A DNA stretch of 64,000 nt from an uncultured Desulfobacteraceae bacterium (GTDB taxonomy: Bacteria > Desulfobacterota > DSM-4660 > Desulfatiglandales > HGW-15). Position numbers and translations under genes: made by a program. The DNA lies in contig CAZOLJ010000002.1 of assembly GCA_964580575.1 (NCBI GenBank), positions 31,447 through 95,446 on the forward strand, in the 5' to 3' direction. Under the pieces are notes generated by a model. That model ran no database searches. It was not told the origin of the DNA and was given only the letters and a program-made list of their open reading frames with translations. Below, in pieces: positions 19,682-44,525 of the stretch (position 1 is the stretch's first letter; the number at the start of each line of letters is the position of its first letter).

Positions 19682-19755
19682 GCCCCCGTAGCTCAGGTGG
19701 ATAGAGCACCAGATTCCTAATCTGGGTGCCGCGTGTTCGAGTCACGCCGGGGGCA
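19682..19755 (+). tRNA. tRNA-Arg (anticodon CCT)
   Basis: A manual cloverleaf gives acceptor GCCCCCG/CGGGGGC, D stem GCTC/GAGC, anticodon stem CCAGA/TCTGG with loop TTCCTAA, and T stem GCGTG/CACGC with loop TTCGAGT. CCA is not encoded. Confidence 0.9.
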
Positions 19756-38155: not shown

Positions 38156-38569
38156 CTACCGTCCCAAAAGGCATTCGCCGACCAAAGATTTTTCCTGTGT
38201 GCGCTGCACGCCGGGCTGTCTTATCCTCCCGCATATTTCCTTCGTGAGTTCCTGCAAGGTGTGTGTTTTGAAAATGTGAAAGTTGGCGGGAAGCCTGTTC
38301 TTTTTTTCCCCCAGTGCCGAGATCCAGCTTGCCCAAACGATGACCGTCGTATCGAGAAGGTATCTTCGGAAACTTAAACAGAGATCAATGCCCCTGCCCC
38401 CTCCGAAGAACTCGTCAATCACGAGAAGATCCGGACGATCTCTTTGGATGGTCTGGCTGAGCATCCAGGGATCGGAAATTGTTCGGATGGAATATCCTTC
38501 CTCGAAGAGCTCTTCGCTGAGGAGCATTGAAATGGCTTGGTCGTCGATTGCGATAAGGATGGTGTGCAT
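38156..38569 (-). CDS. Single-domain response-regulator receiver protein
   Basis: MHTILIAIDDQ.....L.E.L.EEGY......D.........RPDLLVIDEFF has the CheY-like acidic pocket and a putative phospho-Asp in LLVID. There is no output domain. Confidence 0.6.
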   Translation of the reverse strand: MHTILIAIDDQAISMLLSEELFEEGYSIRTISDPWMLSQTIQRDRPDLLVIDEFFGGGRGIDLCLSFRRYLLDTTVIVWASWISALGEKKNRLPANFHIFKTHTLQELTKEICGRIRQPGVQRTQEKSLVGECLLGR

Positions 38570-38705
38570 GGCTCTTCCGCATGGATTGGCCGGACGGCAA
38601 AATCCAATCGCCGGCGTGAAATGATGTTAGATAGAATTATCAGTCCGGAGGAGGAGAATGTAAACGGCAAGAAAATAACAGGCTAATCGCAGGTCAAAAC
38701 TGAGG

Positions 38706-39680
38706 TTACTTCATGGACAGAAGGAAGGATCTGAGGTTTGTTTTTTTCTCTTTCAACTTGAGTTTCTTTCTCAAGTTCATCCTGTGGAACTCCACGGCTC
38801 GCGGTGAGCTGTGGAGGAGATCGGCGATCTCCTTTGTGGTTCTTCCCTGACGAACCAGGTCAGCCACCCTGAGCTCCATGGGTGTGACGTTCAGGCACAG
38901 GTTGGTCAGTTTCTGTTGGAAACCTGACGCGAACTCTTTCAAGTGAGTTTCAAGGATGTCCGCGAGCTCCTTTTGGCCCTCATCCAATCCCCTGGTCTTC
39001 AGTTTCTTCAGGTAGGGGAGGATCCGATTTTTTATGTTTTTTGCAACACGATCCTCGAGTTCAGCGCGATCTTCCTCTCTTTTTCGGAGAAGGACCCGCA
39101 GAGCGGTGTTGATCTCCTGGAGTTCCTGATTCATCAAAGCAAGATCCTTTTCCCTTTCCCGCAGTTCTTCTTCCGCCTTCATCTTCTCGATCACACGACC
39201 TAGACGTTCAGCAACCTCATCGAGGAGGTTCCTCTCTTCCCGAAGAAAAGGCCCTTCATGGCTCTTAGGGGTATTCTCAAGATAGACGACATCCACTCTG
39301 CCGACGGCGTTCCCCCGGACTTTGATGGATTGCGATTGGATCCAAAGCGTCTCGCGGAACTCCCTTGATGTCACGATCAGAGTATCGAAGAGGATTCTGG
39401 CACAGGCGATGTCAGGATATTGCCATGCGGATGGGAGGGCATCGGCTGCACCCTGAAGAATCTCAGGGATTGAAATCCCGGGTTTTTCTATAAATCTGGA
39501 AATGCCGTAGAGACAGTCCAGTTCTTTGACGCGCTCTTGAAGCTCGCGGGTTTTTTCCTGGAGGATGATTTCCGTCCCGTGCATTTTCCCGGTGTTCCTT
39601 TTGAGTTGCTCAGTCCTATTCCGAGAATTCTTGTGGATCAGTTTAATCATATGCCGGTCGCTCCAGGATGGCGTAAACAC
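38706..39680 (-). CDS. LuxR/GerE-family transcriptional regulator with N-terminal sensor-like domain and coiled coil
   Basis: The C-terminal HTH is LTPMELRVADLVRQGRTTKEIADLLHSSPRAVEFHRMNLRKKL. The central segment is heptad-rich (EEELREREKDLALMNQELQEINTALRVLL). Confidence 0.75.
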   Translation of the reverse strand: MFTPSWSDRHMIKLIHKNSRNRTEQLKRNTGKMHGTEIILQEKTRELQERVKELDCLYGISRFIEKPGISIPEILQGAADALPSAWQYPDIACARILFDTLIVTSREFRETLWIQSQSIKVRGNAVGRVDVVYLENTPKSHEGPFLREERNLLDEVAERLGRVIEKMKAEEELREREKDLALMNQELQEINTALRVLLRKREEDRAELEDRVAKNIKNRILPYLKKLKTRGLDEGQKELADILETHLKEFASGFQQKLTNLCLNVTPMELRVADLVRQGRTTKEIADLLHSSPRAVEFHRMNLRKKLKLKEKKTNLRSFLLSMK

Positions 39681-40125: not shown

Positions 40126-40155
40126 TTGACAGGGGAAGCGAGGACCTCCTATACT
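40126..40155 (+). promoter_or_regulatory. Candidate sigma-70 promoter of the lemA operon
   Basis: TTGACA (40126-40131), an 18-nt spacer, then TATACT (40150-40155). It lies about 55 nt upstream of the GTG at 40211. Confidence 0.45.
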
Positions 40156-40210: not shown

Positions 40211-40765
40211 GTGACCTTACTGATCATTCTGGCGATTGTGGTTGTTCTGGGCTTTTTTGTGGTCAGCGTTTACAACGGGCTGGTAAAGGCTCGGAACGAG
40301 GTGAAGAACGCGTGGAGCTCCATCGACGTTCAGCTCAAGCGGAGGCACGACCTGATTCCCAACCTGGTGGAAACGGTCAAGGGGTACGCAGCCCATGAGC
40401 GCGGGACTCTGGAGGCAGTGGTCAAGGCCCGGCAGCAGGCCGTTTCTTTTACAGGGAGCGTGGAGGAACGGGCCAAGGTAGAGAACATGCTCACCCAGTC
40501 CCTCCGGTCCCTCTTCGCCGTGGCCGAGGCCTACCCGGACCTCAAGGCGAATCAGAACTTCTTGAAACTGCAGGAGGAGGTCGCCGGGACCGAGAACAAA
40601 ATCGGTTTCGCCCGCCAGTACTACAACGATGCGACCATGCGGTACAAGAATCGCATCGAGATGTTTCCCAGCAACGTGATTGCAGGGATGTTCAATTTCC
40701 AGCCTGAGCCTTTCTTCCAGCTGGAAGAGCCCGGGGAAAGGGCCGTTCCTCAGGTCAAGTTCTGA
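40211..40765 (+). CDS. lemA: LemA-family membrane protein
   Basis: AAGGAGG lies 7 nt upstream of the GTG. An N-terminal TM is followed by YNGLVKARNEVKNAWSSIDVQLKRRHDLIPNLVETVKGYA.HER.TLEAV and AYPDLKAN.NF..LQ.EL...EN.I..AR..YN. Confidence 0.9.
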   Translation: MTLLIILAIVVVLGFFVVSVYNGLVKARNEVKNAWSSIDVQLKRRHDLIPNLVETVKGYAAHERGTLEAVVKARQQAVSFTGSVEERAKVENMLTQSLRSLFAVAEAYPDLKANQNFLKLQEEVAGTENKIGFARQYYNDATMRYKNRIEMFPSNVIAGMFNFQPEPFFQLEEPGERAVPQVKF

Positions 40766-40805: not shown

Positions 40806-41075
40806 ATGATGGAGGTCATTCACAATATCGGCTGGGCCATTGTCTTCTCGGTGGTGGGCGGGCTAGTGGGCATGTTGCTCGTGCTCCTCGCCTCGGTCAT
40901 CGTGCCCAGGCTCATTGACCGCTTCACCCCGCACATCGACGAACAAAAGGAAATCATTCGCGGAAACAGCGCTGTGGCCGAGTACTACGGCAGACTGGTG
41001 AGCGCTGCCATCCTCGGGGTGAGCATTGTGGTGGCTGCAGCGGTACTGGGAGGCGTCATCGCCGCCTTGCATTGA
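40806..41075 (+). CDS. DUF350-family small membrane protein
   Basis: The 89-aa protein has predicted TM helices and matches the pattern ..TP.IDEQ.EI..GN.AVA....G....AILG. Confidence 0.7.
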   Translation: MMEVIHNIGWAIVFSVVGGLVGMLLVLLASVIVPRLIDRFTPHIDEQKEIIRGNSAVAEYYGRLVSAAILGVSIVVAAAVLGGVIAALH

Positions 41076-41114
41076 CGGGCTGCTGAATGGAGGTGTTGAC
41101 GGGATCCTTGAAAT

Positions 41115-41210
41115 CCCCCCTCCCCTTGCCCCTCCCGCCAAGGGAGGGGAATGGCTTAGAACGCCAAGGATGCCCTCCCCCTTGATGGGGGAGGTCAGGT
41201 GGGGGTGATA
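41115..41210. repeat. GC-rich C-tract/G-tract hairpin repeat (copy D, inverted relative to copy A)
   Basis: It contains cccctccc-gccaa-gggagggg (41129-41149) and cctccccc-ttgat-gggggagg (41174-41194). The stretch 41178-41197 is the exact reverse complement of 5805-5824. Confidence 0.7.
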
Positions 41211-41290
41211 GGGCAGGGTTTGCTGAGGATCTGTTTTAGTTAGGATGTTTCGGAGCTGATGAAGAACTCCGGTGCGCCACCAAGGGTCCG

Positions 41291-43132
41291 ATGATGAAGA
41301 AACTTGTCCTGCTCTTTTCAGTGATCGCCATCCTATTGCTCCCTACCCTTTCCTGGGCCAGGGCCGGGGGAGGGTGCTTTCTTCCTGAAAGTCAGATCCT
41401 CAAGGCTGACGGGACAGAGATGCCCATCAGCTCAGTGCAGCGCGGAGACAAGGTGCTGGCCTTCACCTCGGAAGGAAAAACCGTCCAGGCCGAAGTTCGG
41501 AGTCTTGTCCGCACCGAAGCGGACCAATACGTGATCCTTGAAACCGATCGTGCGACCTTGCGGGTCACGGAAGATCATCCCTTCTATGTCGGCGCGGGCA
41601 CCTTCAAGACCCTCGATGTTCTCAAGCCAGGCGACACGGTCATGGCATGGGACGGCCGGTCCCTGACAGAGCAAAAGATCGTTTCCCTCCAGAAGGTGCA
41701 GGAACGGGTCCAGGTCTTTAATCTTCAGACGGATCGTCCTAACACCTTTTTTGCCGGTCATATCGCCGTACACAACAAAGGAGGGGGAGGAGGGGGCGGT
41801 GGAAGGGGTGGGGGCAGCTCCAGGAGTTCCAGTTCAAGCAGGAGCAGCAGCAGGAGCGGGTCAGGCTCTGGCGGAAATGATCCCGGAGCGGTCTTTGTCA
41901 TTTTTTTCCTGCTCATTTTCATCGTTGTCATTGTGCATGTCCTGCGTTCGCAGAAGGGCAGGAAAAGCGAGAACCTCGATTTTGTGTACGACCGCCGGGA
42001 GATCAGCCTCAAGGCTGAGAAGACTGAAAAGCTGCTCGCCTTCATCAGTCAGCAGGATCAGGCGCTTTCGCCGGAAGCCCTGAGGACTCTAGCACAGTCC
42101 ACGTTCCTCAAACTTCAGGAATGCTGGCAGGCCAGGGATTACACTCCTGTCAAGGCGCTTCTGATGCCGGCTCTTTTTGCTCAGCAGCAGGGCCAGGTGC
42201 TAGGCATGGTCCGGAACCACGAGATCAACCGTCTGGAAGAGTTGAAGGTAGAGAAGGTGGATCTGGTGCATGTCCGCTACACAGAGAAAAAAGATCAACG
42301 CGAGTTCACGGCTCTGATCACCGCTTCCGCCAGGGACACCTACGTGGATGACCGGACAGGCGAGTTTCTGCGCGGCGATGACAAACCGGCGCGTTTTCAG
42401 GAATTCTGGACATTCCAGGTCATCGACGGCCAGTGGCTCCTGAGGGAGATCGAACAGGCTGGGGAGTCGGATATCCTCAAGGATGAGAACTTTGCGGAGA
42501 TGCTGACGGACGAGACCGTTCAGGGAATATACCAGGAAGCGGCCAAAGAAGGAGTGGCCGGGCCATGGCTTGCGAAGGGGGAGGAAAAGAAAGCGACCCG
42601 CATCGAGCGGCTCCTCAACTTCCTGGTGCAGACGGACAAGGTCTGGAACCGGCAACAGATGATCGACCGGGCCAGGCAGGTGTTCCTGAGTGTTTACCTC
42701 GCCAGGGAATCAGGAGATTCTGCTCAGGTGCCGGAGCCGGAGCTCTTCCCCGAGGTGGCACAGAACCTGCGCCAGCAGATCCGGCAGTGGCAATCCGACG
42801 GACTCAAGGTGGAGTACCGAAACCTCTGTGTGCGGAAAGCCGAACTCATCCTGGTACGCAACTTCACGGATTCATCCAAAGACGAATTCACGGTGAGGAT
42901 CGATGCCCATGCGCAGAAGATGGTGCGCCGCGGGGATCGGGTGTTCAGCGAGCAAAAGTATGTGACTCCCTTTGAGGAGTACTGGATCTTCGGTCGCCTG
43001 GATGACCGGTGGAAGCTGAAGGAGGTGCTGCCGCCCGGCCGGGGAAAGAAGATGGTCGCCGAAGAGAACGTGGACGAAGAGAGCAGCGCCGGTCAAATCG
43101 AGTGGTATTACCGCCAGTCCCGTGCGACCTAG
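41291..43132 (+). CDS. Membrane protein: signal peptide, Hint/BIL autoprocessing domain, Gly/Ser-rich linker, TM helix, then two Tim44-like domains
   Basis: The signal peptide is MMKKLVLLFSVIAILLLPTLSWA. The Hint domain spans residues 29-162 (CFLPESQIL...TEDHPF...VFNLQTDRPNTFFAGHIAVHN). It is followed by the linker KGGGGGGGGRGGGSSRSSSSSRSSSRSGSGSGG and the TM AVFVIFFLLIFIVVIVHVL. Two repeats of a Tim44-like module follow (..FLKLQECWQARDY..., ..FQEFWTF...DGQWLLREIEQ and ..FEEYWIFGRLDDRWKLKEV). Confidence 0.8.
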   Translation: MMKKLVLLFSVIAILLLPTLSWARAGGGCFLPESQILKADGTEMPISSVQRGDKVLAFTSEGKTVQAEVRSLVRTEADQYVILETDRATLRVTEDHPFYVGAGTFKTLDVLKPGDTVMAWDGRSLTEQKIVSLQKVQERVQVFNLQTDRPNTFFAGHIAVHNKGGGGGGGGRGGGSSRSSSSSRSSSRSGSGSGGNDPGAVFVIFFLLIFIVVIVHVLRSQKGRKSENLDFVYDRREISLKAEKTEKLLAFISQQDQALSPEALRTLAQSTFLKLQECWQARDYTPVKALLMPALFAQQQGQVLGMVRNHEINRLEELKVEKVDLVHVRYTEKKDQREFTALITASARDTYVDDRTGEFLRGDDKPARFQEFWTFQVIDGQWLLREIEQAGESDILKDENFAEMLTDETVQGIYQEAAKEGVAGPWLAKGEEKKATRIERLLNFLVQTDKVWNRQQMIDRARQVFLSVYLARESGDSAQVPEPELFPEVAQNLRQQIRQWQSDGLKVEYRNLCVRKAELILVRNFTDSSKDEFTVRIDAHAQKMVRRGDRVFSEQKYVTPFEEYWIFGRLDDRWKLKEVLPPGRGKKMVAEENVDEESSAGQIEWYYRQSRAT

Positions 43133-43279
43133 CAGGCTGCTGAAAAACGCCCATCTGCGGCGTTACCCTCATTCCTCATCGTTGCGGCGTACTTGTAGGT
43201 ACGCCTCACTCTTCGGCCCGCCGGAGGCGGATAAAAATTGTCGGGTGCCTTGCATCTGTCCGTTTTTGAGCAGCCTGCT
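43131..43279. repeat. About 150-bp structured element bounded by 19-bp inverted repeats (dispersed-repeat type)
   Basis: agcaggctgctgaaaaacg (43131-43149) pairs with cgtttttgagcagcctgct (43261-43279) at 18 of 19 positions. Internal hairpins are ggcgtac-ttgtag-gtacgcc and ccgcc-gga-ggcgg. The left arm overlaps the TAG stop of the Hint/Tim44 gene. Confidence 0.55.
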
Positions 43280-43538: not shown

Positions 43539-43769
43539 ATGGCGACTGCCCGAGTTTTTAAGTCGGGAAACAGTCAAGCCGTCAGGTTACCGAAGGAATT
43601 CTCTGTGAGGAGCAAGAGGATTGAGATCTTTCGCCGTGGCGACGAGATTGTGCTTCGAGAGCCGGCAAAAGGATTGTCGCGGGCCTTTGAGCTGTTGACC
43701 GAACTACCTGATGATTTTTTTGCTGATGGCCGCAAGGATGGACCTCCACAACATCGGGAGGAATGGTGA
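43539..43769 (+). CDS. vapB: AbrB/MazE/SpoVT-fold antitoxin VapB
   Basis: MATARVFKSGNSQAVRLPKEF is the classic AbrB-type antitoxin N-terminus. It overlaps the downstream PIN ORF by 7 nt. Confidence 0.85.
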   Translation: MATARVFKSGNSQAVRLPKEFSVRSKRIEIFRRGDEIVLREPAKGLSRAFELLTELPDDFFADGRKDGPPQHREEW

Positions 43770-44041
43770 TGCCCATCCGTTACTTGCTTGACACCAACCT
43801 CTGCATTTATATCCAGCGGCAGAGGCCGGGGGAGGTGCTGGCGCGGTTTCAGAAGCTCAAGCCAGGGGATTGTGCCGCGATTTCGGTTATCACCTGGGGG
43901 GAGAGTTGCTTTATGGCGCCGAAAAAAGCCAGCAGCGAAAAAAGGCGCTGGAGGTGATCGAGGAGTTCAAGGGCCTTGTTCCAGTTTTGCCGATGCCGGC
44001 GAATGCCGGGATAGCCTATGGAACCTTGCGAGCGAGGTTCT
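43763..44041 (+). pseudogene. vapC: VapC (PIN) toxin gene, frameshifted and 3'-truncated
   Basis: YLLDTNLCIYIQRQRPGEVLARFQKL.PGD.AISVITWGE then goes out of frame at the G6 run near 43894-43899. The +1 frame continues LLYGAEKSQQRKKALEVIEEFKGLVPVLPMPANAGIAYGTLRARF-stop. The C-terminal third of a normal VapC is missing, and the locus abuts and overlaps the convergent NUDIX gene. Confidence 0.7.
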
Positions 44042-44429
44042 GAATGAATGGAAGCAGTTGAACATCAGGGGGAGGGAGCTGATAGTCGGCCAGTTCATCA
44101 GGCTTCACCCATCGGAGCTCATCACAACCCAAGGGAGTCGGCGCCCCTTTCAGCCAGTGACACTGAAACAGGTGAAGGGTGATGGACTTGGTCTCATAGT
44201 CGTGATCGATTTGAATCAGGTGCTCTACCGCCTTCACCTCCATGGCCAGTTCTTCCCGGAATTCGCGTTCAAGACAGGCTTCCAGGCTCTCTCCGGGTTC
44301 CTGCTTGCCTCCCGGGAACTCCCAGTACCCGGCAAGGTGGCTGCCCGCAGGCCGCCTTGCGATCAGGATATTTCCGTCCTTCCAGACCAAACCCGCAGTC
44401 ACATGAAAATGGGGTATAGATCCTCGCAT
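44016..44429 (-). CDS. mutT: NUDIX hydrolase, MutT-like (8-oxo-dGTP diphosphatase family)
   Basis: The Nudix box is WEFPGGKQEPGESLEACLEREFREELAMEV. The start is chosen at MRGSIPHFHVTAGLVW. Confidence 0.8.
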   Translation of the reverse strand: MRGSIPHFHVTAGLVWKDGNILIARRPAGSHLAGYWEFPGGKQEPGESLEACLEREFREELAMEVKAVEHLIQIDHDYETKSITLHLFQCHWLKGAPTPLGCDELRWVKPDELADYQLPPPDVQLLPFIQNLARKVP

Positions 44430-44525
44430 CGTGGTCCTAGTCGATCGGTGTGTCGCGCAGCCTATCAAGGCGGAAACAGCTGGTGCAAGGTACAAGGTGC
44501 ACGGTGCACGGACAGAGGATAATCA

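Follow-up and report, generated by a model that had tools for sequence, protein, structure and literature searches.

A BIL-type Hint domain with predicted self-excision at a fixed site of a conserved Tim44-like membrane protein family

Introduction

The stretch of DNA described here, referred to as the window, comprises 64,000 nucleotides of an uncultured Desulfobacteraceae bacterium (GenBank assembly GCA_964580575.1, contig CAZOLJ010000002.1, positions 31,447 to 95,446 of the forward strand). One of its genes, an open reading frame (ORF) of 613 amino acids (aa), encodes a Tim44-like membrane protein in which sequence and modelled structure confirm a genuine small Hint domain of the bacterial intein-like (BIL) type, with intact catalytic residues, behind a predicted signal peptide. 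Judged from its sequence, this BIL-type (A-type-like) Hint probably excises itself in the periplasm from the Gly-rich tail of a conserved bitopic inner-membrane protein, which has a DUF350-like partner and, in Desulfobacterota, LemA as well. The window protein is a reduced single-unit member of a larger family, in which such Hints are found singly or in arrays.

BIL domains have been known since 2003. What they do for the cell is still unclear, since the secreted proteins in which they are found vary and are poorly conserved. Neither the domain type nor its chemistry is new. As far as the literature was searched, the novelty lies in the host protein itself, in a fixed insertion site within an RGGGG tail together with relatives in which that site is empty, in the ordered tandem arrays of one to five units, the invariant frame of Gly at -1 and Lys-Gly at +1 and +2, the conserved DUF350-like partner, and the breadth of the family including cultivable hosts. 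Intact BIL-type Hints that occupy a single fixed site in a conserved membrane protein from many phyla, with the cultivable Legionella lytica and L. saoudiensis among the hosts, provide a tractable system for investigating the purpose of bacterial Hint self-processing. The family also allows one to ask whether a +1 lysine supports ligation, as reported for the eukaryotic BUBL BIL2, and what roles the bacterial Tim44-like, DUF350 and LemA membrane modules have. A compact, endonuclease-free Hint working in the periplasm with only Gly and Lys flanks would be of interest to protein engineers.

Motifs, profiles and fold of the Hint domain

The Hint domain corresponds exactly to aa 29-162 (Table 1) and is complete in 134 aa. 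Its first residue is Cys29 (CFLPESQILKADG; C29FLPESQILKADG...), block B is T93-x-x-H96 within RVTEDHPF, and the C-terminal end reads VFNLQTDRPNTFFAGHIAVH161-N162, followed by Lys163 at +1. The nucleophile and T-x-x-H motif that mark the HINT superfamily are thus all present (Cys29, T93, H96). The terminal H161-N162 without Cys, Ser or Thr at +1 is the arrangement of an A-type BIL domain.

Profile searches agree with this assignment. The Pfam models Hint (PF01079; 48.4 bits, cut-off 29.7, E 1e-12) and PT-HINT (PF07591; 36 bits, cut-off 27.7) both match, with weaker matches to Intein_splicing, Hint_2 and Vint; the NCBIfam matches, to Tim44/TimA and to the intein N-terminal model, are sub-threshold only. 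In a phmmer comparison with the PDB, the best matches are Tetrahymena BUBL1 BIL2 (6y75/6tmm, 1.3e-7) and the C. thermocellum BIL domain (2lwy, 1.6e-7), and further down come Hedgehog (1.5e-5) and inteins (at least 6e-3). An AlphaFold2 (AF2) model of aa 24-170, built from an alignment of 46 family units, is all-beta with a mean pLDDT of 92.9. The top Foldseek matches of this model in the PDB are BIL2 (TM-score 0.84, E 1e-11), the NpuDnaB and SspDnaB mini-inteins, the C. thermocellum BIL domain (TM-score 0.81) and the Hedgehog Hog domain; over this set the TM-scores range from 0.79 to 0.84, and the model has the Hint horseshoe beta-fold. By both phmmer and Foldseek the window Hint is nearer to known BIL domains than to inteins or Hog domains.

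Neither an endonuclease insert nor a remnant of one is present: the units of the family are 132-134 aa long, and no LAGLIDADG or HNH match was found in Pfam. No second Hint occurs anywhere within the 64-kb window. The first-pass annotation of this DNA had described a complete mini-Hint of the BIL kind, with all motifs in 134 aa and no endonuclease insert, and profiles, AF2 and Foldseek agree on it. All elements in its description are present, and the matches lie far beyond chance. Of the checks it had proposed, profile searches put Hint, PT-HINT and Tim44 all above their cut-offs, and structure prediction returned the horseshoe fold.

Layout and topology of the window protein

Translation and hydropathy bear out the earlier view of a bitopic Tim44-like protein whose Hint comes directly behind a signal peptide that looks cleavable. 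A Kyte-Doolittle scan gives only two hydrophobic segments, at aa ~1-24 and ~197-220. The sequence upstream of the Hint, read from the translation, is MMKKLVLLFSVIAILLLPTLSWA|RAGGG, and the S/A-W-A|R junction is conserved among homologues. The linker behind the Hint reads K-G8-R-G3-SSRSSSSSRSSSRSGSGSGGNDPG (composition G16 S13 R4). This Gly8/Ser-Arg linker, the single transmembrane (TM) helix and the two tandem Tim44-like domains, as they had been described before, are recovered by hydropathy, Pfam and AF2/Foldseek.

The best reading of the topology, already given in the first-pass annotation, places the Hint outside in the periplasm and the Tim44-like domains inside in the cytoplasm, because of the SWA|R site, the positive residues behind the TM helix, and the Cys-rich ectodomains at the same position in relatives. 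These extra segments of ~90-200 aa lie between the Gly/Ser linker and the TM helix in some family members and are not found in the window protein. They are of two apparent kinds, FYYDC...CC... (P0171, P0172, P0185, P0190) and C...ECIYVYY...C (P0138, P0139, P0141). Such Cys-rich segments are typical of extracytoplasmic domains and support the Hint-out topology. A lipoprotein reading of the GGG-C junction was considered and rejected, as the residue at -3 is Gly and not Leu, Val or Ile and an Arg separates the hydrophobic core from the Cys; it is also ruled out by the recurrence of the same G-C junction internally, between Hint units.

The C-terminal half matches Tim44 (PF04280) in two stretches with 91 bits against a gathering score of 29.6 and belongs to that family. 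The match to the Tim44/TimA adaptor subfamily NF033779 (aa 432-577, over the second Tim44-like domain) reaches 49.2 bits against a cut-off of 80, below membership. In the AF2 model of the C-terminal 392 aa (pLDDT 76), two NTF2-like domains of alpha+beta type are seen. Foldseek ranks the Tim44 C-domains 3qk9 and 2cw9 first, then the substrate-engaged TIM23 complex, and lower down NTF2-/VirB8-like conjugation proteins and mitoribosome chains, which we take to be mL45. Domains of the Tim44 C-domain, mL45 and Mba1 type are membrane-associated in mitochondria.

A family with tandem Hint units

Close homologues were sought in a collection clustered at 90% identity, which gave 1,179 matches at E<1e-5 among the scored candidates. 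Hint and Tim44 occur together in all of the top 120, in nearly all of which the segment before the first Hint reads R-[GA]-GGG. The lengths of these proteins are stepped (~610, 740, 880 and 1,010 aa) because they contain 1, 2, 3 or 4 tandem Hint units of 132-134 aa with a 136-aa period. In the top homologues the first junction is [SA]W[AGS]|R-[GA]-GGG-C, and the junction between units is always HN-K-G(1-7)-C. The T and H of T-x-x-H are conserved to 100% in 371 units of close homologues, and HN-KG stands behind all 371. The units fall into four positional types with 27-40% identity between types, which are old paralogues. The order 1234 is found in 62 proteins, 12 in 24, 123 in 14, and type 2 by itself in 13. 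The window protein retains the type-2 unit only; in its closest relative (L006; 86-96% identity over the cassette), a unit 1 stands at exactly the place that is empty in the window.

Distant relatives were collected by an exhaustive HMMER scan of 50%-identity representatives, with the TM helix and both Tim44 domains as the query. This gave 1,232 matches at E<1e-3, and 69 of the best 150 bear 1-5 Hints. The 139 complete units from these representatives were delimited by hidden Markov model and not by motif. Their first residue is Cys in 138 and Ser in one (the second unit of P0137), the residue at -1 is Gly in 137, and HN followed by Lys-Gly is found in 138. Arrays beyond 12, 123 and 1234 also occur, namely 1212 (P0127, P0193), 222 (P0196) and 12422 (P0160); units therefore duplicate and are lost over time.

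The type-2 unit is conserved as much as the Tim44 part, and more so in distant relatives: identity is 48% for the unit vs 29% for the Tim44 part in P0245, and 53% vs 31% in P0200. These comparisons point to strong purifying selection on the whole Hint domain. Conserved Hint bodies and ordered unit types suggest that the domain may have some function beyond its own removal. Across phyla, identity in the C-terminal region is 45-92%.

Two relatives depart from the common layout. In P0121 (489 aa; the best match of the C-terminal search, 57% identity), signal peptide, Hint and linker give way to a stretch of ~100 aa with Gly-rich hydrophobic segments (MAWCIFIGAVTGGVGGSVYGF...ILGVVGGVGGFIVGAVTGALIAICIEIG); the body of two Tim44 domains is the same, but the N-terminal membrane module is another one. 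P0134 (527 aa) is 83% identical over the first Tim44 domain, and its second half turns to unrelated Arg/Pro/Gly-rich sequence, as expected from a frameshift or an assembly error in a metagenomic contig.

Distribution across bacteria

When one genome per GTDB species was scanned by pattern, at least 137 species from about 10 phyla proved to have a relative, and 80 loci were kept. Within Desulfobacterota these come from Syntrophales, Smithellaceae and Desulfarculaceae; the others are from Verrucomicrobiota, Planctomycetota, Lentisphaerota, Kiritimatiellota, Myxococcota, Nitrospirota, Acidobacteriota, Sumerlaeota and Anaerolineales bins. The cultured hosts among the kept loci are L. lytica and L. 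saoudiensis, both of which have a two-Hint version (L054 4703-7178 and L066, respectively) whose start is overlapped by the DUF350-like gene. The genes flanking the Legionella copies look Legionella-specific, with an OmpA-like beta-barrel upstream and a leucine-rich-repeat-like protein downstream. The Legionella gene may have been acquired by horizontal gene transfer.

Database names for family members are generic domain names only. The L. lytica protein (WP_400186397.1) is annotated merely as 'TIM44-like domain-containing protein', and homologues elsewhere are labelled 'predicted lipid-binding transport protein (Tim44 family)/intein/homing endonuclease' or 'polymorphic toxin-type HINT domain-containing protein' (P0053). 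In the literature searched, no description of Hint-bearing Tim44-like proteins was found (with Tim44, intein/BIL, LemA or DUF350), and absence there is no proof. The earlier remark that this architecture was not known to have been described agrees with that search. The architecture is not confined to the window protein and belongs to a large multi-phylum family with 1-5 tandem Hints.

Relatives without a Hint and the insertion site

More distant full-length relatives, among them P0213, P0270, P0194, P0195, P0211 and P0269, contain no Hint and consist of a signal peptide, A|RGG..., a Gly/Ser/Tyr-rich tail, the TM helix and the Tim44 domains. The sequence around the predicted cleavage site is TYA|RGGGGGGTGGGG... 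in P0213 and SLA|RGGGGSGGSRSGGGG... in P0270. The flanks can be compared directly: the window protein has A|RAGGG-[Hint]-KGGGGGGGG, the Hint-less proteins A|RGGGG and a Gly/Ser tail. The RAGGG "N-extein" of the first-pass annotation is indeed only five residues behind the signal peptide, but it is not arbitrary, as Hint-less relatives begin their mature chain with A|RGGGG. The Hint array is positioned immediately behind RGGGG.

The DUF350-like gene lies directly upstream in two of five Hint-less relatives (in P0270 and P0194; not in P0213, P0146 or P0157). The idea that this partner is specific to Hint-bearing proteins was accordingly rejected. Since Hint-less relatives share the signal peptide, the A|RGGGG tail, the TM helix and the Tim44 domains, and in two cases the DUF350-like gene, the Hints are an insertion into a pre-existing Gly-rich tail. 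The base module is therefore a DUF350-like gene followed by the gene of a protein in which a signal peptide, an RGGGG tail and a TM helix precede a pair of Tim44 domains. As with inteins, insert-free homologues with the same flanks exist, yet the site is low-complexity and contains no conserved functional motif. Removal of the Hint would recreate a mature protein like the Hint-less ones, either RGGGG-K-Gn... or, after C-terminal cleavage only, K-Gn..., which would mimic R-Gn.

The question raised earlier, whether the Hint is a clade-restricted insertion, has a divided answer. Insertion is shown by the Hint-less relatives. As to a single clade-restricted origin, a crude neighbour-joining tree of the C-terminal region intermixes Hint-bearing and Hint-less sequences, but many "Hint-less" entries in it are truncated gene calls. 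The tree leans towards an old insertion that was probably lost repeatedly.

Proposed mechanism

The self-excision proposed above would proceed in the following way. Sec would export the N-terminus, signal peptidase would cut after SWA, and the Hint would fold in the periplasm. An N-S acyl shift, helped by T93 and H96, would then give a thioester between Cys29 and Gly28, and cyclisation of Asn162, helped by H161, would break the Asn162-Lys163 bond. The 134-aa Hint would be released, and the membrane protein would keep a short basic Gly/Ser tail like that of Hint-less relatives. The new tail would start with K-G8... if only cleavage takes place, or with RAGGG joined to Lys163 if ligation follows via the alpha- or epsilon-amine. 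In relatives the same process would act on two to five units in series. For the window protein, we infer cleavage, ligation and topology alike from the sequence. The Hint could be a removable pro-domain or a conditional switch, or its excision could set soluble Hint proteins free in the periplasm.

A chemical role for the lysine is favoured, because Lys is invariant behind every unit, not just the last, and R-[GA]-GGG is constant in its length and its Arg. BIL domains have no +1 nucleophile and mainly show N- and C-cleavage, and ligation "without nucleophilic side chains" has been documented (PMC7664689, citing Dassa 2004 and Aranko 2013; PMC7765530). BUBL BIL2 has been reported to form an isopeptide between the C-terminus of the N-extein and the epsilon-amine of a C-extein lysine (PMC8616854), which makes the invariant +1 Lys a plausible nucleophile. 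A bolder version of the mechanism, rather unlikely on present evidence, makes Lys+1 the splicing nucleophile. The N-extein (RGGGG or the preceding K-Gn) would pass from the Cys1 thioester to Lys+1, through the epsilon-amine as an isopeptide or through the alpha-amine after Asn cyclisation, and serial removal of up to five units in the periplasm would be a regulated maturation of a DUF350/Tim44-like (and LemA) inner-membrane complex. If such lysine-dependent splicing is true, BIL domains would gain a defined housekeeping role for the first time.

Three points weigh against self-excision as the explanation. By itself it leaves up to five units, and four unit types conserved over the whole domain, unexplained; a lone periplasmic Cys could be open to oxidation in aerobes such as Legionella; and the conservation of RGGGG and of the +1 Lys-Gly can equally be read as a need of the chemistry or of the mature tail.

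Alternative explanations

The Hints might instead be permanent periplasmic domains. Their thioester would be used once, to hand the upstream segment to an outside amine or hydroxyl on peptidoglycan, a lipid or a partner protein, in the manner of a "dispensing platform" like that of Hedgehog or BUBL; or else the array would be a periplasm-spanning spacer. The four unit types kept in order, the conservation of the thioester-forming residues, a Hint better conserved than the Tim44 part in distant relatives, and the transfer of the N-extein by BUBL BIL2 to lysines of other proteins all speak for such a role. It is nevertheless unlikely: the His-Asn needed solely for cleavage is as invariant as Cys1, single-unit proteins would have only the pentapeptide RAGGG as cargo, the Hint has no extension behind it that could recruit a sterol or lipid, and Hint-less relatives work with the tail alone. 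The units might also be selfish or neutral mini-intein-like passengers that do nothing for the host and excise themselves without harm from a tolerant low-complexity tail. The site is in a dispensable Gly-rich region, Hint-less homologues exist and are intermixed with Hint-bearing ones in the rough tree, and the copy number varies. Useless inserts should however be lost from a disordered tail, which tolerates imprecise deletion, yet the units persist in ~10 phyla without a homing endonuclease or its remnant, are conserved to a degree that equals or exceeds the host domains, and form distinct ordered paralogue types. This makes passenger status quite improbable, slightly more so than permanent retention.

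Two further assignments can be given little credence. A canonical class 1 protein-splicing intein would account for Cys1, TxxH, His-Asn, the mini-intein fold and Hint-less homologues with the same flanks. At +1, however, there is Lys and in no unit Cys, Ser or Thr, the insertion lies in a low-complexity tail and not at a conserved functional site, the nearest domains by sequence and structure are BIL domains, and the units are tandem and in an exported location, so that this identification is very doubtful. The first-pass annotation had gone further and stated that the domain cannot be a classical splicing intein. It was right that the canonical +1 Cys/Ser/Thr is missing, but "cannot" is too strong, because BIL domains can ligate without a nucleophilic side chain and BUBL BIL2 makes a Lys isopeptide. 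Least credible is the pretoxin-HINT of a polymorphic toxin releasing a C-terminal toxin, as some NCBI annotations of homologues would have it. PT-HINT does exceed its cut-off and P0053 bears the corresponding name, but behind the Hint come the linker, the TM helix and the pair of Tim44-like domains, a toxin domain is absent, the C-terminus is conserved and not polymorphic (the 45-92% identity given above), no cognate immunity gene is evident, and the conserved neighbour is the upstream DUF350-like gene.

Comparison with known systems

Class 1 inteins have a +1 Cys, Ser or Thr and interrupt housekeeping proteins of the cytoplasm at conserved functional sites; they usually occur singly and are often associated with a homing endonuclease. 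The window Hint shares the horseshoe fold and the catalytic blocks A, B and G with class 1 mini-inteins (NpuDnaB, SspDnaB, Mtu RecA), whereas none of the other traits (+1 nucleophile, conserved site, cytoplasmic host, single copy, endonuclease) is found in the Hint-Tim44 family. With A-type BIL domains (Amitai et al. 2003; Dassa et al. 2004; C. thermocellum BIL, 2lwy) it shares a Hint of ~135 aa, Cys1, TxxH and His-Asn, the lack of a +1 Cys/Ser/Thr and of an endonuclease, and placement in exported proteins, export of the window protein being predicted from its signal peptide. Classical BIL domains lie in hypervariable regions of non-conserved secreted proteins, whereas the inner-membrane host of the Hint-Tim44 family is itself conserved, as is its partner gene. 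The family also differs from A-type BIL domains in its ordered tandem arrays of 1-5 and in its essentially invariant -1 Gly and +1 Lys-Gly.

BUBL1 BIL2 (6y75, 6tmm) is the best match in sequence and structure, at a sequence identity of about 23%, and likewise has a repetitive locus and Gly-ending segments before the Hint. In BUBL, ubiquitin-like cargo alternates with BIL domains in the eukaryotic cytoplasm; the Hint-Tim44 proteins have only K-G(1-7) between units, in the predicted bacterial periplasm. The pretoxin-HINT domain (PF07591) shares the profile match and an autoproteolytic-type Hint in an exported protein, but the window Hint is N-terminal, not just before a variable C-terminus, and no toxin/immunity pair is present. 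The Hedgehog Hog domain (1at0) has the same fold and the Cys1 and TxxH thioester motifs; unlike it, the window Hint lacks a sterol-recognition region (poly-Gly follows), has the C-terminal His-Asn, and has a "cargo" of five residues. The Tim44 C-domain, mL45, Mba1 and bacterial Tim44/TimA (PF04280, NF033779) share NTF2-like cytoplasmic domains with the window protein, in which the domain is duplicated, has its own TM anchor, and is preceded by an extracytoplasmic Hint and Gly-rich tail.

Gene neighbourhood

The features of the cassette are summarized in Table 1.

Table 1. Features of the Hint-Tim44 cassette, in positions of the window
Feature	Positions	Strand	Evidence or remark
Sigma-70-like promoter match TTGACA-18-TATACT (11/12) before the LemA gene; possible operon promoter	40126..40155	+	Consensus match only
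LemA-family membrane protein, 184 aa; first gene of the cassette in Desulfobacterota	40211..40765	+	Pfam PF04011, E 6e-61
DUF350-like protein with two TM helices, 89 aa; near-constant partner gene	40806..41075	+	Pfam DUF350, 26.4 bits vs cut-off 26
Whole ORF, 613 aa: signal peptide, RAGGG, Hint, Gly/Ser/Arg linker, TM helix, two Tim44-like domains	41291..43132	+	
Predicted Sec signal peptide, aa 1-23 (MMKK, hydrophobic core, SWA|R)	41291..41359	+	Sequence and hydropathy; predicted cleavage
Five-residue N-extein R-A-G-G-G, aa 24-28	41360..41374	+	R-[GA]-GGG in homologues
Hint/BIL-type autoprocessing domain, aa 29-162, family type-2 unit (Cys29, T93xxH96, H161-N162)	41375..41776	+	
Lys163 at +1	41777..41779	+	Essentially invariant behind every Hint unit of the family
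Low-complexity linker, predicted periplasmic, aa 163-199: K-G8-R-G3-(S/R)n-GSGSGGNDPG	41777..41887	+	
Single TM helix, aa 200-218, AVFVIFFLLIFIVVIVHVL, then RSQKGRK on the predicted cytoplasmic side	41888..41944	+	Hydropathy; positive-inside rule
Tim44-like (NTF2-fold) domain 1, aa 249-389	42035..42457	+	Best Pfam PF04280 stretch; AF2 and Foldseek match to Tim44 C-domain
Tim44-like (NTF2-fold) domain 2, aa ~435-580	42593..43030	+	Second Pfam stretch; second alpha+beta domain in AF2 model
Terminator-like hairpin and T-run 3' of the ORF	43242..43258	+	Pattern match only

The DUF350-like gene is directly upstream in 77 of 84 loci across phyla, with 50-96% identity, and its product is highly conserved (NIGW...PRLIDRLTPNIDEEKEIARGNQAVAEYFGR...AAAVLGGIIAALH). 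Six of the seven loci without it have less than 100 bases of upstream DNA; in the seventh, L060, ~3.4 kb is present and there is still no match. LemA precedes the DUF350-like gene in 35 of the 84 loci, in apparently deltaproteobacterial/Desulfobacterota-type bins and two bins labelled otherwise. A LemA gene also adjoins P0044 and P0108, and in L040 (Phycisphaerales) the LemA match is downstream instead of upstream. The Legionella locus has the DUF350-like gene and no adjacent LemA. The promoter and terminator matches are weakly consistent with LemA, the DUF350-like gene and the Hint-Tim44 ORF forming one operon.

A gap of 215 nucleotides (41076-41290) separates the DUF350-like gene and the Hint-Tim44 ORF, which is unusually long compared with ~50 in L001-L004. 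It contains two G/C-rich hairpins (around 41113-41200), CCCCTCCC-GCCAA-GGGAGGGG and CCCTCCCCC-TTGAT-GGGGGAGG. The hairpin region (41095-41215) is not significantly more stable than shuffled sequence (z -1.68) and has no Rfam match.

The genes that come next downstream of the Hint-Tim44 ORF are not conserved with the family. An antitoxin gene of the MazE/AbrB type (PF04014, 29 bits) and a 64-aa ORF, with an overlap of 7 bases, lie at 43539-43957. This ORF opens like a PIN/VapC toxin (IRYLLDTN...), has no Pfam match, and stops early where a NUDIX gene on the opposite strand (44016-44495) begins; it may be a truncated vapC. Upstream of the cassette, the opposite strand (38156-39680, -) encodes a response-regulator receiver protein at 38156-38569 and a 324-aa protein at 38706-39680 (-) with a C-terminal LuxR/GerE helix-turn-helix and a long coiled-coil-like middle; these two are not conserved beside the cassette in the other loci examined. 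The sole Rfam match at gathering level in the window is one tRNA gene, at 19682-19755 (+), with 65.6 bits.

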